Assembly (NCBI GenBank): GCA_905215055.1
Contig: CAJMOH010000001.1
Coordinates: 34,064-98,063 of the forward strand
Direction: 5' to 3'
Length of the DNA stretch: 64,000 nucleotides
From: an uncultured bacterium
GTDB lineage: Bacteria > Bacillota > Clostridia > Oscillospirales > Acutalibacteraceae
The notes under the pieces are model-generated. The model was not told the origin of the DNA. It did not search any database and saw only the letters and a program-made list of their open reading frames with translations. The position numbers and the translations under genes are program-made. This document shows, piece by piece, positions 6,245 to 30,615 of this stretch (position 1 is its first letter; every line of letters starts with the position of its first letter).

Positions 6245-6264
6245 TGCGAGTTTTCACCTCCCAG

Positions 6265-6345
6265 TCAGCGATGGCGGTACCCGGTGACAATAGCCATAAC
6301 CATGCAGAGCACGGCGCCCCAGGCCCAAAAACGATGGTGTTTCAT
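6265..6345 (-). CDS. Putative 26-aa hydrophobic leader/micro-protein (MKHHRFWAWGAVLCMVMAIVTGYRHR)
   Basis: A GGAGGG RBS lies 7 nt upstream of the ATG. It is below the ORF-track size cut-off and sits directly upstream of the small protein/ATPase operon. Confidence 0.25.
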   Translation of the reverse strand: MKHHRFWAWGAVLCMVMAIVTGYRHR

Positions 6346-6383
6346 GCGGGATCCCTCCTTCCCTGCATTGAGCACAACAGTTA

Positions 6384-7313
6384 TTATACCCCGCCGTCCC
6401 TGTGGGTTTCGCCTGGATTTGGACGGGATTCTACGGAAACGGACATTTTTTTCGAAGCTCTCCGGTACTGGGCCGGGGTCATTTGATAACGGGCCTTGAA
6501 GGCCACGCTGAACTGGCTGGCGCTGCTATACCCTACCGACGCCGCCACCTGCACCACCGTTTGACCGGTAGAAGCCAGCAGGCGCGCCCCCTCCTCCATG
6601 CGGCGTTCCAGCAGGTACTGATGAAGGGGCATCCCATACAGCTGGCGGAAACAGGCCTTCAGCGCCGTCCCAGAGACCCGAAACCTCCTGGACAGCCCCG
6701 CAATGGTCAGCCGCTGGTCCAGATGTCCCAGCATATAGTCGTGAACCTCTTGGACAGCTTGCCGCTGGTGTTTGTCGTAATATTCGCCGCCTGGGGAACG
6801 AGGGCGGCTTTTGCCGCCGGCGTGGAGCAAATAGAGCAGCTCCACAGACTTGATCACACAGTAATCCCCCTTCCGCTGAGAGGGCAGCTGGTCCAGGGCG
6901 CTGAAAAACGTCTCCATCCAAAAGCCCGCGTCTATGACGGCGCACCCATGAGGGGAATCCGGTGGGAAATTACGCAGGCCAGGGCACAGAGTTTTCAGCG
7001 CGGCAAGAGCGGCCTGCTCTTCCCCGGACACCAGCACCCCTTGAAACCTCTCTGGATAGAATTGACAGAAGCACTCTCCTGCCCTGCCGGGAAGGAAGAA
7101 GGCTTTTCCCGGCTCCAGCATCCACTGACAGCCTGGGGAAAAATGAGCCGCCACCCTTCCCCGGCGGCAGAACAACACCTCCAGGCAGCCCTTCTTCGGA
7201 ACGGCGGAAAACCTGGCCTCCTTTGGGACGCCGTCCACCATCCACACCCTGGCCCTGTCCGTTGAAAGTGGAAAGCCCGAGACGCCGGCATTCTCCAGCA
7301 GCTCTTCCAGCAT
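6384..7313 (-). CDS. AraC family transcriptional regulator
   Basis: C-terminal double HTH (…QVAASVGYSSASQFSVAFKARYQMTPAQYRR) with an N-terminal cupin-like sensing domain. Confidence 0.8.
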   Translation of the reverse strand: MLEELLENAGVSGFPLSTDRARVWMVDGVPKEARFSAVPKKGCLEVLFCRRGRVAAHFSPGCQWMLEPGKAFFLPGRAGECFCQFYPERFQGVLVSGEEQAALAALKTLCPGLRNFPPDSPHGCAVIDAGFWMETFFSALDQLPSQRKGDYCVIKSVELLYLLHAGGKSRPRSPGGEYYDKHQRQAVQEVHDYMLGHLDQRLTIAGLSRRFRVSGTALKACFRQLYGMPLHQYLLERRMEEGARLLASTGQTVVQVAASVGYSSASQFSVAFKARYQMTPAQYRRASKKMSVSVESRPNPGETHRDGGV

Positions 7314-7557
7314 GGTTCCACCCCCTTGAAGTTAGAGATAACTAATTCAGCTTTGCAAAAAACGCGCCCTTTCCCAGAGGGGCGCCGCTTGTTAGTTTTT
7401 TCTAACCACTATCATACCACCTTTTTCCCGGTTTCTCAAGTGGAAATTTGCCAGAAGGGAAGCTTTCGCCAGAGCTGAGCCGCACCCCTTGACAGACAGG
7501 CATGGGTCTGCTATACTATAACAGCGTTATATAACATTGCTATATAGGAGATTCACT

Positions 7558-8169: not shown

Positions 8170-8281
8170 TGCCCTATCTTTTTCTCCCGGTGGTTAGTTT
8201 TAACTAATTGCATCTTACTGCCGCCCCTTCTGGGAACTTCCATTTCAATACAAAACTGCAAGGACAAAGGAGGAAGTCATT

Positions 8282-11867: not shown

Positions 11868-12767
11868 CTACGACACAGCTTTTTGTACCGCCGACAAAAA
11901 CTGTCGCACCATGGGAGAGGGATTGGGAGAATGAAGCAGTCCATAGGGAATGGTGTAGTTCCAATCCACGGGAAGAATTTTCAGCAGCGGGTGGACATAC
12001 TGCCACTTCTCCACGGCCATCAGCGCATAGCTGTTGTTTTCGCACCGGTTGAATACGGACACATCGTAAAAATCAAAGTCCACAATCTGGATCTGGGGAT
12101 GATTTTTCCACAGGTCGTCCCGAAGCTGGTCCACATAGTGGCTCCAGTCCCGGTGCATCAGCATCAGCCTTTCCCCATACAGGTCCTGGACCGTCAGCCG
12201 GTCCTTTTGGGCCAGCCGGTGATGGATGGACACCGCCACGCAGATTGGCTCCTTGGAAATCTCCAGTCCATCGCACCTTCGCAGGTTCAGCATGGTCTCA
12301 TCGAATACCCCTGCCACCACGTCGATATGCTGCCCCAAATTGCCGAGAATCTCCCGGGCGTTTTCCAGGGTATTGTCAAAGGGGATCAGCTGGAATTTTG
12401 TGGTGGGGCAATACTTTTGCAGCTGAGGCCACATCTCCACCAGCACCTGGGCGGGCGTCATGGGAGAGGTGCCAATGCGGATTACATTTTCCGTCTCCTG
12501 CATGGCGTTGCGGGCGCGGGTGACAGAATCCTTGCAATATTGGATGATGTATTTTGTGTCTTGATAAAGGGACTGGCCGGCCTTGGTCAGCTGCAGGCCG
12601 CGGTGTGTGCGGACAAACAGCTGCAGCTCCAGGTTTTCCTCCAGCAGATTGATCTGCTTAATCACCGCCGGGGGCGATATAAACAGCCGCTCCGCCGCCT
12701 TGTTGAAGCTGCCCGACTCCGCCACGCAGAGAAACGTGTCCAACTGCGGATTGTACAAAAAACGCAC
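11868..12767 (-). CDS. LysR family transcriptional regulator
   Basis: N-terminal LysR HTH (LDTFLCVAESGSFNKAAERLFISPPAVIKQINLLEENL) with a C-terminal substrate-binding domain. Confidence 0.85.
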   Translation of the reverse strand: MRFLYNPQLDTFLCVAESGSFNKAAERLFISPPAVIKQINLLEENLELQLFVRTHRGLQLTKAGQSLYQDTKYIIQYCKDSVTRARNAMQETENVIRIGTSPMTPAQVLVEMWPQLQKYCPTTKFQLIPFDNTLENAREILGNLGQHIDVVAGVFDETMLNLRRCDGLEISKEPICVAVSIHHRLAQKDRLTVQDLYGERLMLMHRDWSHYVDQLRDDLWKNHPQIQIVDFDFYDVSVFNRCENNSYALMAVEKWQYVHPLLKILPVDWNYTIPYGLLHSPNPSPMVRQFLSAVQKAVS

Positions 12768-12786
12768 CCTCCTTTTCTTTGCTGAG

Positions 12787-12830
12787 AAACTGGGAAAAGG
12801 GCTTTTGCCATGTAATGAGGCAAAGCCCTT
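12787..12830 (-). terminator. Stem-loop terminator downstream of the DUF362 gene
   Basis: A 13-bp stem (AAGGGCTTTTGCC / GGCAAAGCCCTT) with a T-rich tract on the minus strand. Confidence 0.45.
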
Positions 12831-12848
12831 TCCTTATTGCGCCTTGTC

Positions 12849-13853
12849 TTATCCCTGGAAGGGCTTCACGCCCCGCACAGCGTCCTGAACGGAAAGCAGG
12901 ACGTCCCCGTTGTCAATATCCACCAGCAGGTAGCGGTCGTTGCCCATGCCCAGCTCCTTCATGTAGGTGAGCTGCCGCAGGCCGTGGCGGGACTCCATCC
13001 GCTCTACCAGGGCGTGGTGGTCGCTCTCGTTCAGGGCGTACACCAGGTCCACGCTGGCCTGGTCCACCGCCAGAATGTCCGTGGAGGCGCAGATACCAAT
13101 GTTGGGGGTGACCACCGGCTCGGCGGCAGTTCCCTCGCAGTCGCAGGAGACAGACATATTCCGCAGCACATTCACATAGGTGACATGCCTGCCGAAGTGG
13201 TCGATGGCCGCCTTGCAGGACTCGGTCATCCGCTCCATAAACTCCTCGAAGCTGATGTCCCACATGTCGCTGGAGCCGGGGGTGGTGTGGATCATTTTCT
13301 TGCCCACCTGGCCGTCGGCGCAGCCAATGCCGATGTTCTTGTTGGAGCCGCCGAAGCCGCCTTTCGAATGGCCCTTAAAGTGGGTGAGGGCCACCATGGA
13401 GTCGTAGTGCAGCAGGTTCTTGCCCATGGACATTTCCGTAAACCACTTGCCGCCGTTTACGGGGAGCATGACAGTGCCCTCCGCGTCCAGGATGTCCACA
13501 GGGCAGAAGGTCCAGCCGTTGACCTTCAGGGTCTCCCGGTGGGATTCCGTGGTGTAGCGGTCCCCCTTGTAATAGGTGTTGGTCTCGATGATGGAGGCCC
13601 CCGGCAGGTCTTTCTGGATCAGGTTTTCCACCCAATCCCGGGGGATGATGTTGGGGCCGTGTTTCTCGCCGGTGTGGAGCTTCACGCCCACCTTGCCGGT
13701 GATGTTCCCGTTTACCCGCCGGTAAATTTTCTCCAGGCCCGCGGCGGACAGGTCCCGGGTGAAGTAGACGATAGATTCATTCCCGGTGCGCTCCTCGTAA
13801 GGCACATAGTGATCTCCGCCGGCGCCGGGCAAAATGTGGTTTTCGCTCATGGC
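12849..13853 (-). CDS. DUF362-like protein (Fe-S enzyme-associated domain of unknown function)
   Basis: Family resemblance only (…KLHTGEKHGPNIIPRDW…THFKGHSKGGFGGSNKNIGIGCADG…). Start placed at MSENHILPG, where a GGAGGA RBS sits. Confidence 0.45.
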   Translation of the reverse strand, partial: AMSENHILPGAGGDHYVPYEERTGNESIVYFTRDLSAAGLEKIYRRVNGNITGKVGVKLHTGEKHGPNIIPRDWVENLIQKDLPGASIIETNTYYKGDRYTTESHRETLKVNGWTFCPVDILDAEGTVMLPVNGGKWFTEMSMGKNLLHYDSMVALTHFKGHSKGGFGGSNKNIGIGCADGQVGKKMIHTTPGSSDMWDISFEEFMERMTESCKAAIDHFGRHVTYVNVLRNMSVSCDCEGTAAEPVVTPNIGICASTDILAVDQASVDLVYALNESDHHALVERMESRHGLRQLTYMKELGMGNDRYLLVDIDNGDVLLSVQDAVRGVKPFQG

Positions 13854-14077
13854 AAATCCTCCGTTTCTGTAAGAGATGGCTCCCCCTTTGTTTTCTTGTT
13901 TTAGTATAGCCCCTTTTCCATTAAATAGCAAATGCTTTGTATTTATAGCGTTCCATAGATAGCAGCAATCTCTTTTTCAGGGATTCCGCCTGGGAGTCTT
14001 TGGAAAAAGCCTGTTTCTCACCCCGCGCCCATTCGTCAGGAGCCAACACACAGCGGAAAAAGGGCAGCTACCTAAAA

Positions 14078-14112
14078 AACGGCGCCTTCCAGCTTGGAAA
14101 GCGCCGCCACTC
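14078..14112 (-). terminator. Rho-independent terminator after the gpmA remnant
   Basis: A perfect 10-bp stem (GGCGCTTTCC / GGAAGGCGCC) is followed by GTTTTTT on the minus strand. Confidence 0.55.
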
Positions 14113-14156
14113 GCACCGGGACAGCCGCGGAAGCCACCGCTTGTCTCCCCTCTGCG

Positions 14157-14503
14157 TCATCCTTTTGTTCCCTGGTTTTTCACCGCCTGCATCCTTTGCC
14201 GGACTGCCTCTGGGTCCCCAAAATAACGGCGGTCCACCGGGCGAAGGCGATCATCCAGCTCGTAGACCAGGGGAATCCCTGTGGGAATATTGGCCTCCAC
14301 AATCTTCTTGCCGGAAAGATTTTCCAGGTATTTTACCAGCGCCCGCAAGGAATTGCCGTGGGCCGCGGAAAAGCCTTCCTCACGAAGCAAGCGGCCTCCT
14401 GCCGGCCGCTTTCAGAAAGGTCCACGTCGGTCCAGCCCGTAAACAGGTTTCCCTTGTTCCACTGGCTTTCCCCGTGCCGGACCATAACCAGTTGACAGCC
14501 CAT
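14157..14503 (-). pseudogene. gpmA: 2,3-bisphosphoglycerate-dependent phosphoglycerate mutase (gpmA) remnant, carrying both a frameshift and a ~130-codon internal deletion
   Basis: An N-terminal fragment [39 protein letters not shown] carries the RHGxxxWN catalytic-His signature. It shifts frame into LLREEGFS joined directly to [18 protein letters not shown]…[13 protein letters not shown]…, the GpmA C-terminal third. The total is ~115 codons against ~230 for intact GpmA. Confidence 0.6.
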
Positions 14504-14519
14504 AACTCTCCCCCCTTTT

Positions 14520-15890
<1,371 letters not shown>

Positions 15891-15996
15891 TAGCTGGGCT
15901 TATCATACCACAGGCCTTTGAGAAAGTCAAGAGCGGGGAATTGGAAAGGAGAACGGCAGGCTCTGCTTTCCCGCGGTAAAATTTTTTGTTCCTGCC

Positions 15997-16026
15997 TTGA
16001 CAGTGACCAGTCCTCTGCTATATATT
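15997..16026 (+). promoter_or_regulatory. Sigma-70-type promoter for the beta-helix / nucleoside hydrolase operon
   Basis: TTGACA, a 16-18-nt spacer, then TATATA/TATATT, ~60 nt before the RBS of the gene at 16084. Confidence 0.4.
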
Positions 16027-16083
16027 ATGATGGAAATCCGCTCTTTTTTGAGTGAGAATTGTGAAAAACGGAGGAGTAACAGC

Positions 16084-18078
16084 ATGATTTACTATGTGGA
16101 CGGCAAGTCCTTCCGAGATGGGAACGGCACCAAGGAACGGCCCTTTAAGCACATCAACGACGCAGCGAAAATTGCCGCGGCCGGCGACACTGTTCTGGTG
16201 GCCCCCGGCATTTATCGGGAGTATGTGGACCCCCAGAACGCCGGCACCAAGGAAAAACCCATTGTCTACAAGAGCGTTGAGCCTTTGGGAGCGGTGATTA
16301 CCGGCGCGGAGGAGATCCAGTCCTGGCAGCCCTATGAGGGCAATGTGTGGGTGGCCCGGGTGCCAAATTCCCTGTTTGGAAGCTATAACCCCTACACCAC
16401 CTATGTGTACGGCGACTGGTATTTTGCCGGACGCAGCAAGCACACCGGCTGCGTGTACTTGAACGGCAAGGCTCTGTATGAGGCTGAGAGTCTGGAGGCC
16501 TGTGTCAAGGGCGAGGTCTATGAATGCTCCTGGGAGCCGGAGGCCTCTGTTTACAAATGGTATGCCCAGCAGGACGGGGACGAGACGGTGCTTTACGCCA
16601 ACTTCCAGGGCAAGGACCCCAACCGGGAAACGGTGGAGATCAACGTGCGGCGGGAGTGCTTTATGCCCTCTAAAACCGGCGTGAGCTACATCACCGTCAG
16701 CGGATTCACCATCAGCAAAGCCGCCACCACCTGGGCGCCCCCCGCCGCCTATCAGGACGGCATGATCGGCCCCCACTGGTCCAAGGGATGGATCATTGAG
16801 GACTGCGACATCTCCAACTCCAAGTGCGCGGGTATTTCCCTGGGCAAGTATTACGACCCGGACAACGACCACTATTTCACCGTAAAGCATGTGAAGTCCC
16901 CCACCCAGATGGAACGGGACGCCGTGTGCCGGGGCCAGTACCACGGCTGGCTGAAGGAGAAGGTGGGCAGCCACATCGTCCGCCGGTGCAACATCCACCA
17001 CTGCGAGCAGGGCGGCATCATTGGACGGATGGGCGGGGTGTTCTCTGTCATCGAGGACAACCACATCCACCACATCAACAACATGATGGAGCTGGGCGGC
17101 GCGGAAATCGCCGGCATCAAAATGCACGCTGCCATCGACGTGACCTACCGGCGCAACCACATCCACCACTGCACCATGGGCATCTGGTGCGACTGGGAGG
17201 CTCAGGGCACCCGCATTACCCAGAACCTGCTCCACGACAACCAGCGCCCCTCCTTCGCCAAGCAGCTGAAGGGCGGCATGATGAGCCAGGACATCTTCGT
17301 GGAGGTGGGCCACGGTCCCACGCTGATCGACAACAACGTGCTGCTCTCCGACGTGTCTCTGCGGTTTGCCACCCAGGGCGTGGCCATGGTCCACAACCTG
17401 ATCTGCGGCGCCCTGACCTGCGTGGGCGGCGGCACAGGCCTCCGGTACACTCCCTATCACATCCCCCACCGCACGGAGGTGATGGGCTTTATGACCATCC
17501 TTCACGGCGACAACCGGTTCTACAACAACATCTTTGTGCAGAAGTGGCCCTCTGCGCCCTTTATCACCCTGCACGACAACGACGACGGCCAGGACGAGGA
17601 AAACCGCCAGGTTGGCACCCACGTTTGGGACGAATACCCCACCTATGAGGAATGGATTGCCCAGTTTGACATGGACACCGACACCCCCAACATGGGCAAG
17701 CTGGCCCCTGCCCACGACTCTCACCTGCCCATCTGGACAGAGGGCAACGCCTATCTGGGCGGGGCAAGGGCCTGGAAAAACGAGAAAAACGGCCTGACCG
17801 ACACGGAAAGCGCTGTCACGGTGGAGCTGGAGGAGCAGGACGGCCAGCCCATGCTGCGGACCAACGTCTACGATCTGCTGAAGGATTTCTCCTGCCGGAT
17901 GGTGAGCACCGATGTGCTGGGCAAGGCCTTTGAGCCGGAGGAACCCTTTGAGAACCCGGACGGCACTCCCATCACCTTTGACCGGGATTATTTTGGCGGC
18001 CACCGCGGGGCGGCTGTGCTTCCCGGCCCCTTTGCCTCCCAGGAGGATGCCGCCAAGCCTCTGTTCCAATTTGACTGA
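16084..18078 (+). CDS. Right-handed parallel beta-helix (PbH1) repeat protein, pectate-lyase-fold, cytoplasmic
   Basis: The N-terminus YYVDGKSFRDGNGTKERPFKHINDAAKIAAAGDTVLVAPGIYRE is the classic pectin-lyase-fold cap. It carries repeated NxIHH/GxxG beta-helix rungs and no signal peptide. GGAGGAG RBS present. Confidence 0.55.
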   Translation: MIYYVDGKSFRDGNGTKERPFKHINDAAKIAAAGDTVLVAPGIYREYVDPQNAGTKEKPIVYKSVEPLGAVITGAEEIQSWQPYEGNVWVARVPNSLFGSYNPYTTYVYGDWYFAGRSKHTGCVYLNGKALYEAESLEACVKGEVYECSWEPEASVYKWYAQQDGDETVLYANFQGKDPNRETVEINVRRECFMPSKTGVSYITVSGFTISKAATTWAPPAAYQDGMIGPHWSKGWIIEDCDISNSKCAGISLGKYYDPDNDHYFTVKHVKSPTQMERDAVCRGQYHGWLKEKVGSHIVRRCNIHHCEQGGIIGRMGGVFSVIEDNHIHHINNMMELGGAEIAGIKMHAAIDVTYRRNHIHHCTMGIWCDWEAQGTRITQNLLHDNQRPSFAKQLKGGMMSQDIFVEVGHGPTLIDNNVLLSDVSLRFATQGVAMVHNLICGALTCVGGGTGLRYTPYHIPHRTEVMGFMTILHGDNRFYNNIFVQKWPSAPFITLHDNDDGQDEENRQVGTHVWDEYPTYEEWIAQFDMDTDTPNMGKLAPAHDSHLPIWTEGNAYLGGARAWKNEKNGLTDTESAVTVELEEQDGQPMLRTNVYDLLKDFSCRMVSTDVLGKAFEPEEPFENPDGTPITFDRDYFGGHRGAAVLPGPFASQEDAAKPLFQFD

Positions 18079-18093
18079 GAGGAGCTGTTTTTT

Positions 18094-19023
18094 TTGGAGC
18101 TAGAAGCATTGACAGGGCTGCTCCGGCGGCTGGAACGCCCCGAAGGGCCTGTGGACGTGGTTCTGGACACCGACGCCTATAACGAGGTGGACGATCAGTT
18201 TGCTATTTCCTACCTGCTGGCCTCTCAGGACCGGCTGCGGATAAAGGCCCTGTACGCCGCCCCCTTTTTCAACGAGCGGTCCTCCGGTCCCAAGGACGGC
18301 ATGGAGAAAAGCTATCAGGAAATTCTACGGCTGCTGCGGCTGGCGGGCTTTCCCCAGCTGGAAGGTTCTGTCTTTCGCGGGTCCGACAGCTACCTGCCGG
18401 ACGAATCCACCCCGGTGCGCTCCCCCGCGGCGGAGGACCTGGCAAAACGGGCCATGGCCTATTCGCCGGAAAATCCCCTGTATGTGGCGGCCATCGGCGC
18501 ACCGACCAACGTGGCCTCTGCCCTGCTGCTGGAGCCGGCCATCGCCCAGCGGGTGGTGATCGTCTGGCTGGGCGGCCACGCCTGGGACTGGCCGGACAAC
18601 CGGGAGTTTAACGCCTTTCAGGACGTGGCGGCGGACCGGGTGATATTTGACAGTCAGGCGGCGGTGGTTCAGCTGCCCTGCCAGGGCGTTGTATCCGCCT
18701 TCCGGGTCAGCGGCCCAGAGCTCCGGCAGTATTTGCTGGGGAAAAGCCCTCTGTGCGATTACCTGGTGACACTGGTGGAGGAATCTCAAAAAGCGGAACA
18801 GGCAGGCCCCTGCTGGACCAGAGTGATCTGGGACGTGACCGCGGTGGGCTGGCTTTTGGGCCGGCGCTTTATGGAGGACCGGCTGGAGCCAAGTCCCATC
18901 TTCCAATATGACCACCATTACAGCTTCGACAAGTCCCGCCATCCCATGCGGTATGTGTATCACATTCACCGGGATGAGCTGTTCGCCGATCTCTTTGAAA
19001 AGCTGACAAGGCTGGGAAAATAA
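18094..19023 (+). CDS. Nucleoside hydrolase (IU-NH family)
   Basis: DTDAYNEVDDQFAI matches the DxDxxxDDxxA Ca2+/ribose-binding fingerprint. TTG start 16 nt after the upstream stop, with a GAGAGGAG RBS. Confidence 0.6.
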   Translation: MELEALTGLLRRLERPEGPVDVVLDTDAYNEVDDQFAISYLLASQDRLRIKALYAAPFFNERSSGPKDGMEKSYQEILRLLRLAGFPQLEGSVFRGSDSYLPDESTPVRSPAAEDLAKRAMAYSPENPLYVAAIGAPTNVASALLLEPAIAQRVVIVWLGGHAWDWPDNREFNAFQDVAADRVIFDSQAAVVQLPCQGVVSAFRVSGPELRQYLLGKSPLCDYLVTLVEESQKAEQAGPCWTRVIWDVTAVGWLLGRRFMEDRLEPSPIFQYDHHYSFDKSRHPMRYVYHIHRDELFADLFEKLTRLGK

Positions 19024-21530: not shown

Positions 21531-21623
21531 GCCGCGGGAAAAGGCCCGCGGACACCCGGAGTCCCAACGGGCCTTATCATACCCCATAGAAAGGGTTTTG
21601 TCAATTTGTTTCCGGTCAGGAGG

Positions 21624-23651
21624 CTATCTCATCCCTGTCAGGTGGGCAGCCGACGCGATCAGAAAGCACAGCCCCAGCCCCGCGGCAGTGGGCAAAAGCA
21701 GGGACGCCGCCGTCCACTTCAGGCTTTTTGTCTCTCGCCAGATGGTCCAGCAGGTGGTGGAGCAGGGCCAGTGGAACAGGGAAAACACCATAACGCACAG
21801 GGCCGTCACCCAGGTCCAGCCGTTTTGCAGCAGCAGGCCGTGCAGCTGGGACAGATCTCCCGCCTGCGCCAGCGCTCCCTGGGAAAGATAGCCCATCAGC
21901 AGCAGGGGCAGCACCAGCTCGTTGGCGGGAAGGGCCAGCAGAAAGGCCAGCAGAATTACCCCATCCAGCCCGAACAGCCGGGCGGCGGGATCGAGAAAGG
22001 CGGCACAGTGGGAAAGCAGGCTCTCCCCGTTTACAGTGATATTTCCCAGGCACCAGATCAGCACCCCCGCCGGAGCCGCCACCGCGGCGGCCCGTCCCAG
22101 CACAAACAGGGTGCGGTCCAGCACGGAGCGGGCCAGCACCTGGCCCACCTGGGGCCGGCGGTAGGGCGGCAGCTCCAGGGCAAAGGAGGAGGGCATTCCC
22201 CGCAAAACTGTCTTGGAAAGGAAGGCCGAGGCTCCCAGGGTCATGGCAAAGGAGAAGGCCAGCAGCACCCCCACCAGCAACGCATTCACAAGGCCGCCAG
22301 CCACGCCTCCCAGGGTGAAAAACAGCGCTCCCAGCGTGACCAGCAAGGGCAGTCTGCCGTTGCAGGGGGTAAAGGCGTTTGTCAGCAGGGCAATCAGCCG
22401 CTCCCTGGGGGAGTGGAGAATCCGGCAGCCCACTACCCCGGCGGCGTTGCACCCCAAGCCCATGGAAATGGTCAGGGCCTGCTTGCCGCAGGCGCCGCAG
22501 CGTTGGAAGCACCGGTCCAGATTATACGCCACCCGGGGCAGATAGCCCAGGTCCTCCAACAGCGTAAACAGAGGAAAGAAGATGGCCATGGGAGGCAGCA
22601 TCACCGCCACCACCCAGGACAAGGTGGTGTAGGCCCCATCCACCAGCACCCCGGACAGCCAGGCTGGAGCGCCGGAAAGCAGCTCCCGCAGCCAATTCCC
22701 CAGGGAGGCAAAGCCCTGGCTCAGCAGCTGGGAAGGCCCATTGGCGCCCACCATGGTCAGCCACAGCAGCCCCACCAGCAGCAGGCCCATCACGGGAAAC
22801 GCCGTCCAACGGCCGGTGAGGATTCGGTCCAGCCTTTTATCCTGAACGCTGTAACCGCGGTCCAAGCCGGAAACCGCCCGGCGGGCCAGTTCTCCGGCCC
22901 GCCGGGCCAAAGCGCCGGCAATGGCGTCGGAAAACCACTGGGGAGGACGCTCCCTCCAGGTCTCCTGAAGCAAGGCTGCTTCCTGAGAGGAGGCGGCCTC
23001 CTCCACCCCCTCCAGCAGCCGCAGGGCGTGCCATCGGGGATTGGCCTTCCCGGCTTGGCGCAGCAGGGGACTGATCCGGGCCGCGGCGTTTTCTACCGGG
23101 GCGGGATACTTTACGGGAGGTGGGAGCTTGGTTTCCTCCCCTCCAGCGGCTTTGGCCAGGGCCTCGCGCAGAGCTGGCAGCCCCTTGCCGCTGCGGGCAG
23201 CGCATCCCACCACCGGCACCCCCAGCAACCGGGAAAGCTCCTCCAGGCGGACGTGAATGCCCTTGCGCCGAGCTTCATCCAACAGATTGACGCACACCAC
23301 CGCCCGGGAAGTGATCTCCAGCACTTGCAGCGCCAGGGACAGCCCACGCTCCAGGCAGGTGGCGTCACAGACCACCAGCACCGCGTCCGCCTGGCCGGAA
23401 CAGAGAAAATCCCTGGCGGCTGTTTCCTCCCCCGTGGAGGAAAGAAGGGACACGCAGCCGGGCAGGTCCACCAGCCGGTAGCTTTCCCCTTGAAATTCCC
23501 AGCGGCCCTGGGCGTTTGTCACGGTCTTTCCCGCCCAGTTGCCGGTGTGCTGCCGCAGGCCGGTCAGCGCGTTAAAAACGGTGCTTTTCCCCACGTTTGG
23601 GTTTCCTGCCAGGGCGATGATGGACCCTGAAAAGCGCCTTGCTGATCCCAC
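21624..23651 (-). CDS. feoB: Ferrous iron transport protein B
   Basis: G-domain IALAGNPNVGKST, followed by the Gate/nucleoside-recognition membrane domains, ~675 aa. Start set at the GTG 13 nt after the feoA stop, with a TAGGAGTG RBS. The 26 upstream codons overlap feoA and lack an RBS. Confidence 0.8.
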   Translation of the reverse strand: MGSARRFSGSIIALAGNPNVGKSTVFNALTGLRQHTGNWAGKTVTNAQGRWEFQGESYRLVDLPGCVSLLSSTGEETAARDFLCSGQADAVLVVCDATCLERGLSLALQVLEITSRAVVCVNLLDEARRKGIHVRLEELSRLLGVPVVGCAARSGKGLPALREALAKAAGGEETKLPPPVKYPAPVENAAARISPLLRQAGKANPRWHALRLLEGVEEAASSQEAALLQETWRERPPQWFSDAIAGALARRAGELARRAVSGLDRGYSVQDKRLDRILTGRWTAFPVMGLLLVGLLWLTMVGANGPSQLLSQGFASLGNWLRELLSGAPAWLSGVLVDGAYTTLSWVVAVMLPPMAIFFPLFTLLEDLGYLPRVAYNLDRCFQRCGACGKQALTISMGLGCNAAGVVGCRILHSPRERLIALLTNAFTPCNGRLPLLVTLGALFFTLGGVAGGLVNALLVGVLLAFSFAMTLGASAFLSKTVLRGMPSSFALELPPYRRPQVGQVLARSVLDRTLFVLGRAAAVAAPAGVLIWCLGNITVNGESLLSHCAAFLDPAARLFGLDGVILLAFLLALPANELVLPLLLMGYLSQGALAQAGDLSQLHGLLLQNGWTWVTALCVMVFSLFHWPCSTTCWTIWRETKSLKWTAASLLLPTAAGLGLCFLIASAAHLTGMR

Positions 23652-23664
23652 TGGTATCACACTC

Positions 23665-23916
23665 CTAGATTCCTGTATTGGAAAGGAACGCCACCCGCAC
23701 CGGACGGGCGTCCCGCCGTCGTAGGGCAATTACCGTCCCCCGCAGCTGATAGGCCCTGGGGTCTCCCAGCGGGCTGGTCCCCACACATTCCACCTGGGCG
23801 CCTGGGACAAATCCCAGCTCCTGCAGCCGGCGGCGTTGGGCGCCCTGAGCAAAGACCTCCTGAACCACGGCCCGCCTATCGGGAGGCAGTCTATCCAGGC
23901 TTGTTTCTTCCTCCAT
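23665..23916 (-). CDS. feoA: FeoA domain protein
   Basis: An 83-aa ORF with LGFVPGAQVECVGTSPLGDPRAYQLRGTVIALRRRDA, the FeoA SH3-like signature. Confidence 0.7.
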   Translation of the reverse strand: MEEETSLDRLPPDRRAVVQEVFAQGAQRRRLQELGFVPGAQVECVGTSPLGDPRAYQLRGTVIALRRRDARPVRVAFLSNTGI

Positions 23917-24302: not shown

Positions 24303-24338
24303 ATTGACTTATGTGCGAAACTGCGGTAAGATACAGCT
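24303..24338 (+). promoter_or_regulatory. Sigma-70-type promoter of the DUF134/fusion-reductase operon
   Basis: TTGACT, a 17-nt spacer, then TAAGAT. The predicted TSS is ~25 nt before the RBS GGGAGGG of the gene at 24369. Confidence 0.5.
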
Positions 24339-24368
24339 GGTAAGGACTGGTTGAAGGGAGGGGATTGT

Positions 24369-24722
24369 TTGGCCAGGCCCAGTAAATGCCGGTGTATTTG
24401 CTCCATGCCCCGGATTACGGAGTTTCTCCCCGGGGGAGAGGCAGACCTTCGGGGGCCGGTTGTCTTGCAGGTGGATGAGCTTGAGGTCATCCGTCTGCTG
24501 GATTACAAGGGCTTTACCCAAGAGCAATGCGCCGGGCGAATGAACATATCCCGCACCACCGTCACACGGATTTACGAGGCGGGCCGCCGCAAGGTGGCCC
24601 AAGCCCTGGTGGAAGGCAGAGGCCTCTCTATCAAGGGCGGGGATGTGATGATCTGTACCAGCCTCCGGCCGGAATGTGCTGGAGAACTCCATTGCTGCCA
24701 CAGGCAGGGAAAGGAAGATTGA
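24369..24722 (+). CDS. DUF134/UPF0251 family putative DNA-binding protein with a Cys-rich N-terminus
   Basis: (M)LARPSKCRCICSMPRITEFLPGG…VLQVDELEVIRLLDYKGFTQEQCAGRMNISRTTVTRIYEAGRRKVAQALVEG matches the UPF0251 pattern (ARPRKCRxVC…P…F.P.G…ea.rL.d.eGl.qeeaA..m.vSr.T..r). TTG start with a GGGAGGG RBS. Stop is 1 nt before the next start. Confidence 0.55.
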   Translation: MARPSKCRCICSMPRITEFLPGGEADLRGPVVLQVDELEVIRLLDYKGFTQEQCAGRMNISRTTVTRIYEAGRRKVAQALVEGRGLSIKGGDVMICTSLRPECAGELHCCHRQGKED

Positions 24723-24723
24723 G

Positions 24724-27300
24724 ATGAAAATTTTAGTCATCGGCGGCGTGGCCGCGGGTACCAAGGCCGCCGCCAAATGGAAACGGGAAAACCGGGCCGA
24801 CCAGGTGATGGTAATCACCAAAAGCGTGGACATTTCCTACGCGGGCTGCGGACTGCCCTACTATGTGGGCGGCTCCATCGCGGACAAGGGGGAGCTGATT
24901 GTGAACACCCCCCAAAAATACCAGGGCCTGACCGGCGTGGAGGTGCGCACCCAGCGGGAGGCCGTGCAGGTGGACCCCGCGGCCAAAAGGGTGGTTGCCA
25001 AAAACCTGCAAACCGGTGAAGAGGAGTCCTACGGCTATGATAAGCTGATTGTGGCCACCGGCGCCTCCGCGGTAAAACCGCCCATTCCCGGGGTGGATTT
25101 GAACGGCGTGTTCCCCATGCGCGCTCCTCAGGACGCCATCGCCATGCGGGACTATTTGGACGCCAACGGGGTGAAAAAGGCCGTGGTTATCGGCGGCGGC
25201 TTTATCGGCCTGGAGTTGGCTGAAAACCTGTTTGACCGGGGCATTTCGGTCACCGTGGTGGAGCTGGCCCCTCAGATTCTGGCAAACGTTCTGGACCCGG
25301 AGATGGCAGGCTACGTCAAGCGCCACCTGCAGCAAAAGGGCATTCGAGTGCTCACCGGGGCCAAGGCTGCCGCCATTGTGGGCCAGGGCAAGGTGGAAGG
25401 CGTACAGACGGATTCTGGGCTGCTGCCCTGCGGCGCGGTAGTGCTGTCCGCGGGAATCCGGCCCAACACAGACTTCCTTGACGGCACAGGCGTGGAAATG
25501 GTGAAGGGCGCCATTGTGGTGGATCAGCATTTGGCCACCAGCGTGGCGGACATCTACGCCGTCGGGGACTGCGCCCTGGTGACAAACCGTCTCACGGGCA
25601 AGGCCCAGTGGTCCCCCATGGGGTCCTCCGCCAACCTGGAGGGCCGCACGCTGGCCCAGGGCCTGAATGGAGAGGACAAGACCTATCCCGGTGTGCTGGG
25701 TACCGGCGTGGTGAAGCTTCCCGGCCTGAACGCCGGACGCACCGGACTGACTGAGGCCGCTGCCAGGGAAGCCGGCTATGACGTGGAGACCGTGGTGGCT
25801 GTCACCGACGACAAGGCCCACTACTATCCCGGAGCCGCTTTCTTCATCACCAAGCTTTTGGCGGACAGGAACACCCACCAGCTGCTGGGCGTTCAGGTGC
25901 TGGGGCCTGGGGCGGTGGACAAGATGGTGGACATCGCCGTGGTGGGAATCTCCATGGGCCTGAAGCTGGAGGACTTTGAAAACCTGGATCTGGCTTACGC
26001 TCCTCCCTTCTCCACGGCCATCCACCCCTTTGTACAGGCGGTGTATGTGCTGGAAAACAAGCTTTCCGGCGCGATGGACTCCATGACCCCTGCCCAGTAC
26101 GCCGCGGGAGAGGCAGAGGGCTGCACGGTGATTGACGTGAACCCCCAGCCTACCATTCGGGGCGCCAGGTTTGTGGACCTGTCCAAAGTGGACGGTCCCC
26201 TGGAGGGCATTGGCAAGGACGAGAAGCTGCTGCTGGTGTGCGGACGGGGCAAGCGGGCCTACTTCCTGCAAAACCGGCTGAAATTCTATGGCTACACCAA
26301 CACCCTGGTGCTGGAGGGCGCCACCACCTTTAACGAGGTGCGCATCAAGGCCCCCGGCGCCGCCGTTCCTCCGGAGGAGGTCACACGGGTGAAGGGCCTG
26401 GGATTCCTGTGGGACAAAAACACTCCCGACTGCTTCAACGGCCGGGTTATCACCCGCAACGGCAAGATCACCGCGGAGGAAATGCGGGCCATCACCGAAG
26501 CGGCGGAGCGCTTTGGCAACGGTCAGGTGGCTATGACCACCCGGCTGACAATGGAGATTCAGCACATTCCCTTCGACAACATCGAGCCTCTTCGGGCATT
26601 TTTGGCGGAGCATGGCCTGGAAACCGGCGGCACCGGCTCCAAGGTACGTCCCGTGGTAAGCTGCAAGGGGACCACCTGCCAGTATGGGCTGATCGACACC
26701 TTCGCTCTCAGCGAGGAAATTCACGAGCGGTTCTATCACGGCTACAACAACGTGAAGCTGCCCCACAAATTCAAGATCGCCGTGGGAGGCTGTCCCAACA
26801 ACTGCGTCAAGCCCGACCTGAACGACCTGGGCATTATCGGACAAAAGGTGCCTCTCATCGACCTGGACAAGTGCCGGGGCTGCAAGGTGTGCCAGGTGGT
26901 CAACGCCTGTCCCATCAAGGTGCCGGTGGTACAAAACGGCAAGGTGGTTATCGATGACAACGCCTGCAACCACTGCGGCCGCTGCGTGGGAAAATGTCCC
27001 TTTAAGGCCGTGGAGGGCTTTACCAGCGGCTACCGGGTCTACATTGGCGGACGCTGGGGCAAGAAGGTGAAAAAGGGCCAATATTTGGAAAAGGTGTTTA
27101 CCGACAAGGACGAGGTCCTGAACGTGATTGAAAAGGCCATTCTGCTGTTCCGGGAGCAGGGCCTGACCGGCGAGCGCTTTGCTGACACGGTAGACCGCAT
27201 TGGCTTTGAAAATGTCCAGGCCCAGCTGCTGTCTGACGGCCTGCTCCAGCGGAAAGAGGTAAATTTGAAGCTGGACGTAAAGGGCGGGGCCACCTGCTAA
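24724..27300 (+). CDS. Three-domain fusion oxidoreductase: CoA-disulfide-reductase-like FAD/NAD(P)H flavoprotein + rhodanese + nitrite/sulfite-reductase-like siroheme/[4Fe-4S] domain with a ferredoxin insert
   Basis: Residues 1-~450 are a CoADR/NADH-oxidase fold (MKILVIGGVAAGTKAA dinucleotide site; single active Cys in SYAGCGLPYY; second GGGFIGLE NAD site). Residues ~455-550 are a rhodanese domain with the LVCGRGKRA CxGxxR loop. Residues ~555-858 are a NIR/SIR-type hemoprotein: ferredoxin-like half-domain, then VVSCKGTTC…GGCPNNC Cys clusters, then two ferredoxin motifs (CRGCKVCQVVNACP and CNHCGRCVGKCP). The whole is one 858-aa ORF with an AAGGAAG RBS. Confidence 0.7.
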   Translation: MKILVIGGVAAGTKAAAKWKRENRADQVMVITKSVDISYAGCGLPYYVGGSIADKGELIVNTPQKYQGLTGVEVRTQREAVQVDPAAKRVVAKNLQTGEEESYGYDKLIVATGASAVKPPIPGVDLNGVFPMRAPQDAIAMRDYLDANGVKKAVVIGGGFIGLELAENLFDRGISVTVVELAPQILANVLDPEMAGYVKRHLQQKGIRVLTGAKAAAIVGQGKVEGVQTDSGLLPCGAVVLSAGIRPNTDFLDGTGVEMVKGAIVVDQHLATSVADIYAVGDCALVTNRLTGKAQWSPMGSSANLEGRTLAQGLNGEDKTYPGVLGTGVVKLPGLNAGRTGLTEAAAREAGYDVETVVAVTDDKAHYYPGAAFFITKLLADRNTHQLLGVQVLGPGAVDKMVDIAVVGISMGLKLEDFENLDLAYAPPFSTAIHPFVQAVYVLENKLSGAMDSMTPAQYAAGEAEGCTVIDVNPQPTIRGARFVDLSKVDGPLEGIGKDEKLLLVCGRGKRAYFLQNRLKFYGYTNTLVLEGATTFNEVRIKAPGAAVPPEEVTRVKGLGFLWDKNTPDCFNGRVITRNGKITAEEMRAITEAAERFGNGQVAMTTRLTMEIQHIPFDNIEPLRAFLAEHGLETGGTGSKVRPVVSCKGTTCQYGLIDTFALSEEIHERFYHGYNNVKLPHKFKIAVGGCPNNCVKPDLNDLGIIGQKVPLIDLDKCRGCKVCQVVNACPIKVPVVQNGKVVIDDNACNHCGRCVGKCPFKAVEGFTSGYRVYIGGRWGKKVKKGQYLEKVFTDKDEVLNVIEKAILLFREQGLTGERFADTVDRIGFENVQAQLLSDGLLQRKEVNLKLDVKGGATC

Positions 27301-27436
27301 CAGCGTGCCGCTGCACCATCGCCGCGCACTGGGGCCGTGCCCCAGACCATTTCCTAGGAAGTCAAGCTTGCGGCCCGCGTTTGGGACAAGGTGCAGTTTG
27401 AAATCTGTGATCTTGCGTGGGCACACACCGCGCAAA

Positions 27437-28624: not shown

Positions 28625-29092
28625 CTACTCCCGCAATTTTTGAAAAAACTCTTGCAGCAGGACCTTCGCCTCGGCCTCAAAGAAGCCCCGGTAGACCTCT
28701 GGGCGATGACTGTAAGGCAGGGAAAACAGGTCGGCGGCCGTCCCGCAGCAGCCTGCCCGTTCATCATCGGCGCCATAAACAACACGGTCCATATGGGCGT
28801 TGATAATGGCCCCTGTACACATGGGACATGGTTCCAGGGTGACGTACAAATCACAGCCGGTGAGCCGCCAGGTTCCCAGCGCCTGGCAGGCCCGGTGAAT
28901 GGCCTCCACCTCGGCGTGGGCCAAGGCGGTGCGGCCCTCCTCCCGGCGGTTGCGGCCCTCCCCGATCACCTGTCCGTCCTTCACCACCACGGCGCCCACG
29001 GGAACCTCTCCCGCGGCGGCGGCTTCTTCGGCCAGGGACAAAGCTCGGAGCATAAACCGCTTTTCTGGCAAAAAGGCGAGAGGCAGCATCAT
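28625..29092 (-). CDS. tadA: tRNA-specific adenosine deaminase
   Basis: HAEVEAI and PCPMCTGAI zinc-binding CDA motifs. ATGA overlap with the upstream CPBP gene. Confidence 0.8.
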   Translation of the reverse strand: MMLPLAFLPEKRFMLRALSLAEEAAAAGEVPVGAVVVKDGQVIGEGRNRREEGRTALAHAEVEAIHRACQALGTWRLTGCDLYVTLEPCPMCTGAIINAHMDRVVYGADDERAGCCGTAADLFSLPYSHRPEVYRGFFEAEAKVLLQEFFQKLRE

Positions 29093-30615
29093 AGCATCAG
29101 AAACATGCTCAGGGTGTAAAGGACCATCAGTCCCAAAACCACCCAGAAGCCCGGCGCCCGGACAATGGCGGAGGCGCTTTCCCCCGCCATTAAAGGCTGG
29201 GAAGGACCGTCATACCGGGGAGAGCGATAGGAGATGAACATGCCCCGCTTGAACAGCGCCAGCAGCAGCAAGGCCGCAAGACCGACCCCCAGGGGAATCA
29301 GCACAATGAGATTGTCCACCAGCACCGCCATGTCTCCAAAGAGGAAACCAGCGTGACTGCCCACCACGGCAATCAGGTTGTTCAGAGCATGAATCCACAC
29401 CGCCAGCCACAGGTTATTTGTTTTGGCGTAGAGGAATCCAAACACCAAGCCCGCGATGAAGGCGAATACCGCGGTGGAAAAGTCCATATGGGCCATGCCA
29501 AAGATCAGCGCGGAGGCCACAATGGAAAAGCCAATGCCGTATTTTCGCAGAGAGGAAAGCACAATGCCGCGGAACACCAGCTCTTCCATAAACGGCACCA
29601 GCAGGGCGGTGACGCCGATTTCCAGCAGAACCGCCGCCAGAGATTCCTCCCCAAAGATCAGGCTCGCAGCGGACTGATAGCCAAAAGCACTGAAGAAATC
29701 GCTGATAAACGCTGCTGGGTAATTGCCCAGCAGCACAATGGCCAAGCCGCCCAGCACACAGAGCACCCCGCCGGAAAAGCCCGTCTTCTCAAATTTTAAG
29801 TAGTCCGAGGGGTCCTCCCGGCGGAAAATCAAATAGGCCACAAAGGGTAATGCGGTGGACAAAGGCGCCAGCACTCCCGCCAGCCACTGATAGCCCAGAC
29901 CGTTGGTGAGAATATTCACTCCCACAGCGGCCAGAAGCATTTGCAAGGGTATCTGCCACACAAAGGACAGGGCCACTTGAGCAAGCGCCAGCAGGCACAT
30001 GCGGTTTACAGCCCGGGACGCCCCCTGCTGCCTGGGATCACGAGGGGGCTTTCCTCCCATGGCGAAGGGCGGCGGGTAAACCGGGAGAGCTCCATACCCG
30101 GCGGGAAAGACTCCTCCGTAGGGAGAACCAACGTTTTGAGGAACGCCCTGCGGTACAGTCTGATACATTCCCTGGGGGAAACTCTGATATGCCCCTTGAG
30201 GCGGTACGCCCTGGGGGGCGTTTTGGTACGCTCCCTGAGACGGCATGCCCTGAGGGGCGTTTTGGTACGCTCCCTGAGGCGGCATGCCCTGGGGAACATT
30301 CTGGTACACTCCCTGAGGCGGCATGCCCTGGGGGGCGTTTTGGTACGCTCCCTGAGACGGCATGCCCTGAGGGGCGTTTTGGTACGCTCCCTGAGGCGGC
30401 ATGCCCTGGGGGACATTCTGGTACGCTCCCTGAGGCGGTACGCCTTGGGGAACGTTTTGGTACGCTCCCTGAGGCGGTACGCCCTGGGGGACATTCTGAT
30501 ACACTCCCTGAGGCGGCATGCCCTGGGGAACGTTTTGGTACGCTCCCTGAGGCGGCATAGGGCCGTTGGAAGGGGGCGGCGGATAGCCGCCGGGCGGATA
30601 AGCGCCATAGTTCAC
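29089..30615 (-). CDS. CPBP-family intramembrane glutamic endopeptidase (CAAX protease-like) with a long N-terminal Pro/Gln/Gly-rich tandem-repeat region
   Basis: C-terminal EELVFRG…FGMAHM…HALNN CPBP motifs. The N-terminal ~160 aa consist of ~12 copies of a 13-aa unit (PQGMPPQGAYQNV). Confidence 0.7.
   Translation of the reverse strand: MNYGAYPPGGYPPPPSNGPMPPQGAYQNVPQGMPPQGVYQNVPQGVPPQGAYQNVPQGVPPQGAYQNVPQGMPPQGAYQNAPQGMPSQGAYQNAPQGMPPQGVYQNVPQGMPPQGAYQNAPQGMPSQGAYQNAPQGVPPQGAYQSFPQGMYQTVPQGVPQNVGSPYGGVFPAGYGALPVYPPPFAMGGKPPRDPRQQGASRAVNRMCLLALAQVALSFVWQIPLQMLLAAVGVNILTNGLGYQWLAGVLAPLSTALPFVAYLIFRREDPSDYLKFEKTGFSGGVLCVLGGLAIVLLGNYPAAFISDFFSAFGYQSAASLIFGEESLAAVLLEIGVTALLVPFMEELVFRGIVLSSLRKYGIGFSIVASALIFGMAHMDFSTAVFAFIAGLVFGFLYAKTNNLWLAVWIHALNNLIAVVGSHAGFLFGDMAVLVDNLIVLIPLGVGLAALLLLALFKRGMFISYRSPRYDGPSQPLMAGESASAIVRAPGFWVVLGLMVLYTLSMFLML
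30130..30600. repeat. Tandem 39-bp coding repeat array (~12 copies) inside the CPBP protease gene
   Basis: Near-identical units such as ccctgaggggcgttttggtacgctccctgaggcggcatg recur head-to-tail. Confidence 0.7.

Follow-up and report, generated by a model that had tools for sequence, protein, structure and literature searches.

Within a 64,000-nt stretch of a genome from an uncultured member of the Acutalibacteraceae (contig CAJMOH010000001.1; the whole stretch is called the window here), one gene encodes a single chain of 858 residues that joins a coenzyme A (CoA)-disulfide/persulfide reductase flavoprotein, a rhodanese domain and a siroheme-type sulfite-reductase domain. This is a new architecture assembled from known kinds of module, and it occurs widely among the gut commensals of humans and animals. 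Computation directly established the identities of the domains, the conservation of their catalytic residues, the recurrence of the fusion, its link to siroheme genes and the presence of a cysteine-ended tail. The best-supported reading of these features gives the protein a role in sulfite or sulfane-sulfur reduction. More specifically, and with about even confidence, we predict a bifunctional, NADH-linked enzyme that would take sulfite (or thiosulfate) to sulfide by means of an internal cysteine/CoA persulfide relay.

A persulfide-reductase half and a sulfite-reductase half in one chain

A first-pass annotation of the window, made by a model from the letters of the DNA, had proposed the three-module chain from short motifs, and Pfam domains, alignments and an AlphaFold fold match all bear this out. 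Every quoted motif was found in the translation of the 858-aa open reading frame (ORF): SYAGCGLPYY at residues 38-47 (including C42), LVCGRGKRA at residues 504-512 (including C506), SCKGTTC (C647 and C652), GGCPNNC (C690 and C694), CRGCKVCQVVNACP (C717, C720, C723 and C729) and CNHCGRCVGKCP (C748, C751, C754 and C758). When the protein was scanned with Pfam, Pyr_redox_2 matched residues 1-289 (207 bits) and Pyr_redox_dim residues 335-433 (60 bits), with a further match to Pyr_redox (76 bits); NIR_SIR_ferr matched residues 573-629 and NIR_SIR residues 638-835 (112 bits), with Fer4 models inside the latter at 711-763. The AlphaFold model had a mean predicted local distance difference test score (pLDDT) of 82.8 and a predicted template-modelling score (pTM) of 0.62. 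Domain boundaries and mapped residues are listed in Table 1.

The N-terminal half aligned over residues 1-536 with AfNpsr of A. fulgidus (E 2.4e-96) and EfCoAPR of E. faecalis (5.8e-90), and its further solved relatives are B. anthracis CoADR-RHD and Shewanella Npsr. Superposition of the AlphaFold model with Foldseek on Npsr, CoAPR and CoADR-RHD structures (6PFZ and 8A56 included) covered about 545 columns at a template-modelling (TM) score of 0.92. In the alignment C42 is in register with C42 of both EfCoAPR and AfNpsr, while C506 is in register with EfCoAPR C508 and AfNpsr C519. The surroundings of the former, SYAGC42GLPYY, fit the motif S-(F/Y)-x-x-C-x-L-P-Y of a single redox-active cysteine beside the flavin, in agreement with the CoADR-type site that had been called from the motif. 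The rhodanese domain scored only 19.5 bits with the Pfam Rhodanese model, under the cut-off of 22.2 (a distant fusion, P0122, scored 48 bits). This domain, also named in the first pass, is nonetheless real, since the solved CoADR-rhodanese enzymes align as far as residue ~536 and the fold superposes. The NCBIfam equivalogs for CoA-disulfide reductase were both missed (TIGR03385, 386.3 vs 578.8 bits; NF007123, 384.2 vs 458 bits), which places the protein in the wider CoADR-RHD group, outside the CoA-disulfide reductases in the strict sense. The fusion and stand-alone CoADR-RHD proteins have conserved Tyr, Arg and Asn positions in common.

For residues 1-545 we predict CoA binding and NAD(P)H-dependent reduction of persulfides or polysulfides. 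In the mechanism described for CoADR-RHD enzymes (PMC9405070, PMC7969121), tightly bound CoA takes over the persulfide from the rhodanese cysteine, its pantetheine arm swings across to Cys42 next to the flavin, and NAD(P)H is spent to set H2S free. An invariant E180 that ends the second Rossmann strand suggests, by the general rule, that NADH is preferred over NADPH. The four solved proteins (AfNpsr, 6PFZ; EfCoAPR, 8A56; BaCoADR-RHD, 3ICR; SlNpsr, 3NTA) match residues 1-545 over their full length at 31-35% identity. Known members of this group, however, end after the rhodanese domain at ~540-570 aa, whereas the fusion adds a siroheme enzyme of 310 aa.

Among solved structures, the C-terminal ~300 residues come closest to the C-terminal halves of the Fsr proteins of Methanothermococcus and Methanocaldococcus (E 3.9e-40), and a profile of the domain and its stand-alone relatives matched Fsr at E 7.1e-71, covering Fsr residues 342-612. 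DsrB followed at only ~1e-18. The resemblance to AsrC/DsrA-type subunits drawn in the first-pass annotation thus gives way to a much closer one with Fsr-C/Dsr-LP proteins, and the equivalog cut-offs for AsrC (TIGR02912, 114.6 vs 324.1 bits), dsrB (94.4 vs 341.5 bits) and dsrA (84.5 vs 392.9 bits) were all missed. The domain is a single repeat, and the CC pair found at the cluster site of DsrB (CXnCCX3C) is absent. Residues were mapped onto Fsr with the roles given in PMC10229431 (Table 1), and the eight cysteines of the insert are enough for two more clusters. The Pfam matches and the Fsr alignment therefore uphold the earlier call of a NIR/SIR-type module with siroheme/[4Fe-4S] cysteines and a two-cluster ferredoxin insert. 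By these alignments the C-terminal module falls among the small sulfite reductases of the Fsr-C/Dsr-LP group III type that Susanti and Mukhopadhyay described (PMC3448663). It is predicted to bind siroheme and to reduce sulfite to sulfide, and in at least 11 loci the fusion gene is followed by a siroheme operon (see below).

The same annotation had regarded the fused electron input as a departure from the norm, but precedents exist. Group I Fsr of the Methanococcales (7NP8, 7NPA) likewise carries, in one chain, an electron-input flavoprotein module and a single reductase repeat with a two-cluster ferredoxin insert; the C-terminal halves are homologous and share the four anion-binding Arg/Lys residues as well as the assimilatory-type Arg. 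The N-termini are unrelated: that of Fsr is an FrhB/FpoF-like F420H2 oxidase with Fe-S clusters of its own, whereas that of the fusion is an NAD(P)H/FAD oxidoreductase with a redox cysteine, a CoA site and a rhodanese domain. The fusion also differs from Fsr in having CX4C in place of CX5C, an extra cysteine tail, and bacterial (gut Clostridia) instead of archaeal hosts. NirB is a second precedent, in which an N-terminal flavoprotein of the same broad superfamily is fused to NIR_SIR_ferr and NIR_SIR in one chain, which demonstrates that flavin and siroheme modules can function in such a fusion. Between them NirB carries a BFD-type [2Fe-2S] bridge, and it lacks a redox cysteine, a CoA site and a rhodanese domain. 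In the fusion, by contrast, the pocket residues are of the sulfite type, and no Fer2_BFD match was obtained in the Pfam scan of the protein, where the rhodanese domain fills that position. NirB (TIGR02374) was the third-best NCBIfam match of the fusion protein, at 237.2 bits against a cut-off of 578.35.

AsrC of the AsrABC system (Salmonella, Clostridium) shares with the fusion a siroheme subunit of the Dsr-LP group III type with a ferredoxin insert (PMC3448663). AsrABC is also NADH-linked and takes sulfite to H2S in anaerobes. The predicted electron input of the fusion is, however, a fused flavoprotein of another family, and neither its surroundings in the window nor the genes that recur beside it across 80 related loci included AsrA or AsrB. 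To DsrA and DsrB the similarity is weak, and these form paired A/B subunits in contrast to the single repeat seen here. The fusion thus resembles both Fsr and Npsr/CoAPR and belongs to neither as defined; a full-text literature search found no description of a CoADR-RHD/sulfite-reductase fusion.

Table 1. Features of the fusion gene and its upstream region, with window coordinates, and residues of the predicted sulfite-reductase site with their Fsr counterparts
Feature	Position	Strand	Details
Fusion gene	24724..27300	+	ATG 24724, stop 27298-27300; 858 aa
CoA-disulfide/persulfide reductase flavoprotein domain	24724..26058	+	residues 1-445; FAD and NAD(P)H Rossmann motifs; Cys42 at nt 24847-24849
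Rhodanese (sulfurtransferase) domain	26059..26343	+	residues 446-540; Cys506 at nt 26239-26241 in loop CGRGKR
Short linker	26344..26388	+	residues 541-555; mean conservation 0.55; pLDDT <50 at 542-547
Sulfite-reductase domain, first part	26389..26853	+	residues 556-710; NIR_SIR_ferr half-domain, predicted anion-binding residues, siroheme-cluster Cys
Inserted 2x[4Fe-4S] ferredoxin domain	26854..27018	+	residues 711-765; eight Cys; from Fer4 models and Fsr alignment
Sulfite-reductase domain, last part	27019..27243	+	residues 766-840
C-terminal extension	27244..27297	+	tail G854-G855-A856-T857-C858-COOH at 27283-27297; Cys858 at nt 27295-27297
R574			Fsr R355; predicted sulfite binding
R642			Fsr R423; predicted sulfite binding
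K682			Fsr K460; predicted sulfite binding
K684			Fsr K462; predicted sulfite binding
R607			Fsr R388; assimilatory-type trait
C647/C652/C690/C694			Fsr C428/C434/C468/C472; predicted siroheme-coupled cluster
DUF134 (UPF0251) gene, putative helix-turn-helix (HTH) regulator	24369..24722	+	117 aa; TTG start after GGGAGGGG; Cys-rich, begins M-ARPSKCRCICS
Sigma-70-like promoter candidate, TTGACT-17-TAAGAT	24304..24332	+	upstream of the two-gene unit; 9/12 consensus match

Recurrence of the fusion and of its C-terminal cysteine

A word-indexed search yielded 7,983 relatives, of which the top 120 were nearly all 858-860 aa long, with full coverage and 74-99% identity; those that carried a name were called 'FAD-dependent oxidoreductase' or 'pyridine nucleotide-disulfide oxidoreductase'. 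A second scan, which took a single genome for each GTDB species, gave at least 592 confirmed relatives, and the loci studied here are the best 80 of these; almost all are full length, at 63-90% identity, and come from gut Oscillospiraceae and Lachnospiraceae. The protein of 'Candidatus Acutalibacter ornithocaccae' is 90% identical to that of the window. At least 80 species-level genomes encode the full-length fusion, and carriers include the isolates Clostridium leptum DSM 753, Pseudoflavonifractor gallinarum, Lachnospiraceae bacterium 10-1, Faecalicatena orotica, Sellimonas intestinalis, Eisenbergiella tayi and Gemmiger sp. An87.

This survey, which the first-pass annotation had suggested, bears on its own worry that assembly or gene calling had joined two genes into one. 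One metagenomic contig (L084, 409-2990) speaks for such an artefact, since the gene is there broken into two ORFs (555 and 257 aa) and adjoins a transposase that we take to be IS66-like; this copy is probably a pseudogene or the product of a sequencing error. Unbroken ORFs of 852-891 aa in 79 genomes of different species, including the isolates Clostridium leptum DSM 753 and Eisenbergiella tayi DSM 26961, refute the artefact, and because these genomes are independent a false join near 26080 or 26370 is excluded. In addition, the closest stand-alone CoADR-RHD protein examined (P0327) has no sulfite-reductase neighbour. We see next to no chance that the fusion is spurious.

Conservation was read from an alignment of 79 full-length homologues that are 62-86% identical to the window protein. 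C42, C506, R574, R607, R642, K682 and K684 are invariant in all 79, and so are the 12 Fe-S/siroheme cysteines (four of the cluster and eight of the insert, with one X in one sequence). The alignment also revealed a feature that had gone unreported in the first pass, a GGATC-COOH tail. Each of the 79 proteins ends in GGA(T/S)C-COOH, Cys858 being the last residue of the window protein, and the same tail is present in divergent fusion clades and in a fusion of the module to a C_GCAxxG_C_C domain. It is absent from some 34 stand-alone homologues (~300 aa) of the sulfite-reductase domain. Conceptually the tail recalls the DsrAB-DsrC system: a flexible arm of small residues (Gly, Ala, Thr) with a cysteine at or near its C-terminus could reach the siroheme pocket and remove sulfur. 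DsrC works by such a cysteine arm, as a co-substrate of DsrAB. It is, however, a separate protein with two cysteines, whereas the fusion has a single terminal cysteine on the enzyme itself. Because one relative of the module is fused to JAB, we also considered the tail as a sulfur-carrier GG terminus cut by a JAB protease; this idea was set aside, as no beta-grasp domain could be read before the GG.

Comparison of the two halves points to a modular origin. After clustering at 50%, the top 150 relatives of the C-terminal domain included only two full-length fusion representatives, the others being stand-alone proteins of ~280-310 aa or fragments. The C-terminal halves of all fusion clades are 61-72% identical, whereas N-terminal identity between the window, P0122 and P0324 clades is only 33-39%; the N-terminal halves of P0122 and P0324 are 50-65% identical to stand-alone CoADR-RHD proteins. 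Similar C-terminal and divergent N-terminal halves imply that the tailed module was joined to at least two or three CoADR-RHD lineages. In a further family (P0124; 451 aa, 18 cluster members, 12 contigs) the tailed module is instead fused to a flavin-free C_GCAxxG_C_C 'putative redox-active' domain. A metagenome scan for this arrangement gave one true locus (L083, gene at 5989-7359), the remainder being ordinary fusions or fragments, and there a gene for a TauE/SafE sulfite-exporter-family permease lies directly upstream (5088-5879). Remoter homologues of the module occur in fusion with a JAB/MPN domain (P0183) or with TusA (P0186), and these fusions link the wider module family to sulfur-carrier/sulfur-trafficking pathways. 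A split-gene ancestor, with a stand-alone CoADR-RHD gene adjoining a sulfite-reductase gene, found no support: P0327 has other neighbours, namely a CoA_binding/Put_DNA-bind_N gene, presumably Rex-like, and an aldehyde/alcohol dehydrogenase gene.

Siroheme genes accompany the fusion in part of the 80 loci. Directly downstream and on the same strand, hemA, sirC, hemC, cobA/hemD, hemB and hemL were found in at least 11 loci, and the operon was located in Lachnospiraceae loci L046-L053, L055, L057 and L064 (about 12590-18600). The same gene order is seen in a sulfate-assimilation cluster of Ruminococcus bromii (PMC6378601). A siroheme pathway downstream of the fusion supports a siroheme cofactor. 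Within the 64-kb window itself, tblastn found no siroheme genes.

Predicted reaction and competing explanations

In the reading that we favour, the modules would be coupled by sulfur transfer and not by electrons alone. The C-terminal module would reduce sulfite at a siroheme coupled to a [4Fe-4S] cluster and associated with the two-cluster ferredoxin insert, while the route in the N-terminal module would lead from NADH to FAD, on to Cys42 and bound CoA, and so to the rhodanese Cys506. Sulfur at the sulfane level, arising from a siroheme-bound intermediate or from thiosulfate cleavage, would be carried as a persulfide by a DsrC-like Cys858 arm or by Cys506, and the persulfide-reductase module would free it as H2S with consumption of NADH. 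The remaining electrons would reach the siroheme through the ferredoxin insert, coming from the flavin or from soluble ferredoxin. The net effect would be that sulfite (or thiosulfate) is detoxified or used and H2S is produced. The enzyme is probably homodimeric, and its hosts are strictly anaerobic Clostridia of the gut. We infer its cofactor content, substrate, NADH preference, electron path and tail function from the features described above. A sulfur relay is favoured over a pure electron donor because the module is repeatedly paired with thiol/persulfide domains, one of which is unable to oxidise NAD(P)H. Its occurrence on the flavin-free C_GCAxxG_C_C domain likewise argues that the partner's job is thiol/persulfide chemistry and not electron input only.

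Several observations weigh against this proposal. Fsr-type assimilatory traits are thought to drive the six-electron reduction without release of intermediates (PMC10229431), which would make a DsrC-like capture step unnecessary. The cluster motif reads CX4C...CX3C (C647/C652, then C690/C694) where CX5C...CX3C is canonical; both CX4C and CX5C spacings are present among stand-alone relatives of the domain. AlphaFold confidence is low at the siroheme loop (636-657) and moderate (~65) for the tail. Finally, no sat, cysH or asrAB genes, and none for sulfate activation, sulfonate degradation or thiosulfate import that could pin down the substrate, recurred among the clustered neighbours of the 80 loci, and the TauE neighbour is known from one locus.

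A more complete version of the relay is a full persulfide-intermediate cycle in one soluble chain, which we put forward tentatively and with considerable doubt. Here the siroheme would stop at the sulfane level, the Cys858 arm would collect the intermediate and hand its sulfur to the rhodanese Cys/CoA, and the NADH persulfide reductase would regenerate the arm. If true, the DsrAB-DsrC-DsrMK cycle would have an NADH-coupled counterpart that needs no membrane, thiosulfate could be turned into two H2S by the same enzyme, and the fusion would be a major uncounted source of H2S and sink of sulfite/thiosulfate in the human gut.

A related and attractive possibility is a single-chain cytoplasmic thiosulfate reductase, in which Cys506 would split thiosulfate and both the persulfide and the sulfite would be reduced within the chain, yielding two H2S per thiosulfate. 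It overlaps with the relay from sulfite and differs in the physiological substrate only. Such an enzyme would explain all three modules together and would fit the invariance of Cys506, and thiosulfate forms abundantly in the gut when the host oxidises sulfide. A rhodanese and an anaerobic sulfite reductase, as separate proteins, have been proposed to take thiosulfate to sulfide in Halanaerobium, and >40% of Clostridia genomes have both (PMC5497025). The rhodanese domains of characterised Npsr/CoAPR enzymes, however, are described as acting on persulfides and polysulfide, with no thiosulfate activity mentioned in the excerpts that we drew on, and no thiosulfate transporter recurs beside the fusion gene in the loci studied. 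Thiosulfate as the substrate would also leave the invariant cysteine tail and the rhodanese-less C_GCAxxG_C_C fusion unexplained, and we consider it fairly unlikely to be the physiological answer.

Electrons could also, in keeping with the self-sufficient NAD(P)H-dependent reductase of the first-pass annotation, simply run from NAD(P)H through FAD and the ferredoxin insert to the siroheme for a six-electron reduction of sulfite, with the thiol apparatus and the tail as baggage or in a side role. The passage of electrons from NADH to sulfite is thermodynamically downhill, and in NirB a flavoprotein of related type is coupled with a siroheme domain. The rank of NirB among the NCBIfam matches and the assimilatory-type Arg607 in the active site agree with such a flow, which is what Fsr achieves with its F420H2-oxidising module (PMC10229431, PMC3448663). 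Baggage would drift, however, and C42, C506 and C858 are invariant in 79/79 homologues at divergence down to 62% identity. A list of the cysteines in the N-terminal half revealed no Fe-S site that could bridge the FAD and the ferredoxin insert. Moreover, the tailed module also sits on the flavin-free C_GCAxxG_C_C domain, with no flavoprotein gene near it in the one locus seen, and the existence of stand-alone relatives of ~300 aa implies that an external donor can serve the sulfite-reductase module. A plain electron-transfer chain of this sort is in our judgement unlikely.

Nitrite reduction is a common side activity of siroheme enzymes (PMC10229431, PMC9295563), and group II Fsr is a nitrite reductase in an anaerobic methanotrophic (ANME) archaeon (PMC9295563), so that another small anion (nitrite, hydroxylamine or selenite) might be reduced at the siroheme instead of sulfite. 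The LysR regulator beside some copies pointed in a similar direction, as its best match is a 'selenium metabolism-associated' model, below the cut-off (152.9 vs 250 bits); together with an entry in a review table this was too weak to establish a selenium link, which we rejected. In group II Fsr two pocket arginines are replaced by Lys and Gly (PMC10229431), whereas in the fusion both Arg and both Lys of the sulfite pocket are invariant, making nitrite unlikely as the main substrate. The fused partner is, furthermore, dedicated to sulfane sulfur, and related modules are fused to TusA or JAB or adjoin a TauE permease. An anion other than sulfite is thus very unlikely to be the substrate.

The reaction might, lastly, run in the opposite direction, with persulfide or sulfide being oxidised to sulfite as in reverse Dsr and the electrons passed to NAD+. 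One relative of the module is fused to TusA, a persulfide carrier of reverse-acting Dsr systems that has been named as likely in sulfur transfer to DsrEFH; DsrC is a persulfide carrier of such systems as well. The hosts, however, are fermentative gut anaerobes with no obvious use for sulfite production, the oxidation of sulfide with NAD+ is thermodynamically uphill, and the active-site traits are of the assimilatory, reductive type. Operation in this direction is highly improbable.

With reduction to sulfide as the favoured outcome, the fusion is probably an unstudied gut route from sulfite (or thiosulfate) to hydrogen sulfide. Its carriers include common commensals (Clostridium leptum, Blautia, Sellimonas, Eisenbergiella, Faecalicatena and Gemmiger), and in the gut H2S, sulfite and thiosulfate act on the epithelium, on inflammation and on how pathogens colonise. 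Gut sulfur surveys count dsrAB, asrABC and cysteine desulfhydrases, and they would miss a protein annotated only as 'FAD-dependent oxidoreductase'. The fusion is also a bacterial counterpart to the Fsr of methanogens, and it offers a natural, soluble, single-chain system for the coupling of siroheme to thiol/persulfide carriers, the question behind DsrC-dependent sulfite reduction. The invariant cysteine tail and the repeated, independent fusions to thiol-redox partners provide concrete features that can be mutated and tested directly.

Gene neighbourhood

The gene immediately upstream in the window matched Pfam DUF134 (84.7 vs 27 bits), with Sigma70_r4/HTH at residues 36-76, and its TGA ends at 24722, one base ahead of the ATG of the fusion. 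The first-pass annotation was therefore right about a DUF134 protein with a cysteine cluster at this locus, but the pairing does not extend to the family at large: DUF134 is directly upstream on the same strand in only 24/80 loci and is a recurrent, not an obligate, partner. In 21 aligned DUF134 homologues from upstream of fusions, the motif RPxKxRCICSxP, the HTH sequence SRxTVxRxY and a C-terminal C..PEC..CCH are conserved at ≥90%, and these cysteine motifs fit a metal-sensing or redox-sensing regulator. A literature search on the function of DUF134 returned unrelated matches only, mostly DUF134x names. At two loci (L011 and L040) the DUF134 protein upstream of the fusion has a long C-terminal extension that, by our reading, resembles a NifB/NifX-type FeMo-cofactor-binding domain. 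A LysR regulator is found upstream in about 11 loci, and in many lineages the cysteine-rich DUF134 protein or LysR would control the fusion gene. The promoter called earlier as clean is present ahead of the two genes, but a scan gave three such sites in 4.5 kb where shuffles predict 1.2, and the consensus match is weak evidence that this candidate is used.

Iron genes also lie nearby. FeoA and FeoB are divergent from the fusion gene in the window (21624-23916, minus strand) and adjoin it in two close relatives as well, and an importer of the ATP-binding cassette (ABC) family for Fe complexes or haem (substrate-binding protein, FecCD and FecE) is directly downstream in at least seven loci (L038, L070-L072, L075, L077 and L080). 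This proximity could reflect iron demand, shared regulation or tetrapyrrole import. Besides FeoAB, the genes annotated around the fusion gene in the window encode a thioesterase, a deaminase and a protein without a Pfam match. Ribosomal proteins, DnaB, IlvC, MATE efflux proteins and others of this sort are the other recurrent neighbours across the 80 loci, and we take these to be housekeeping genes. In two further loci (L017 and L045, about 8190-9960; Lachnospiraceae) the gene directly upstream of the fusion encodes a C_GCAxxG_C_C-GGDEF-EAL signalling protein, a second and independent association of C_GCAxxG_C_C with the fusion enzyme.

The window has a G+C content of 58% and is syntenic with a Clostridia metagenome-assembled genome (L001). 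Two long ORFs lie opposite real genes, one of 900 aa at 24733-27435 on the minus strand and one of 674 aa at 21606-23630 on the plus strand; neither is a gene, their Gly/Arg/Pro/Gln-rich, low-complexity translations being typical of antisense frames in G+C-rich DNA. Beyond the fusion gene, at 29089-30615 on the minus strand, the window encodes a 508-aa CAAX-protease (Rce1-like) membrane protein whose N-terminal ~150 aa consist of tandem repeats like PPQGAYQNVPQGM.

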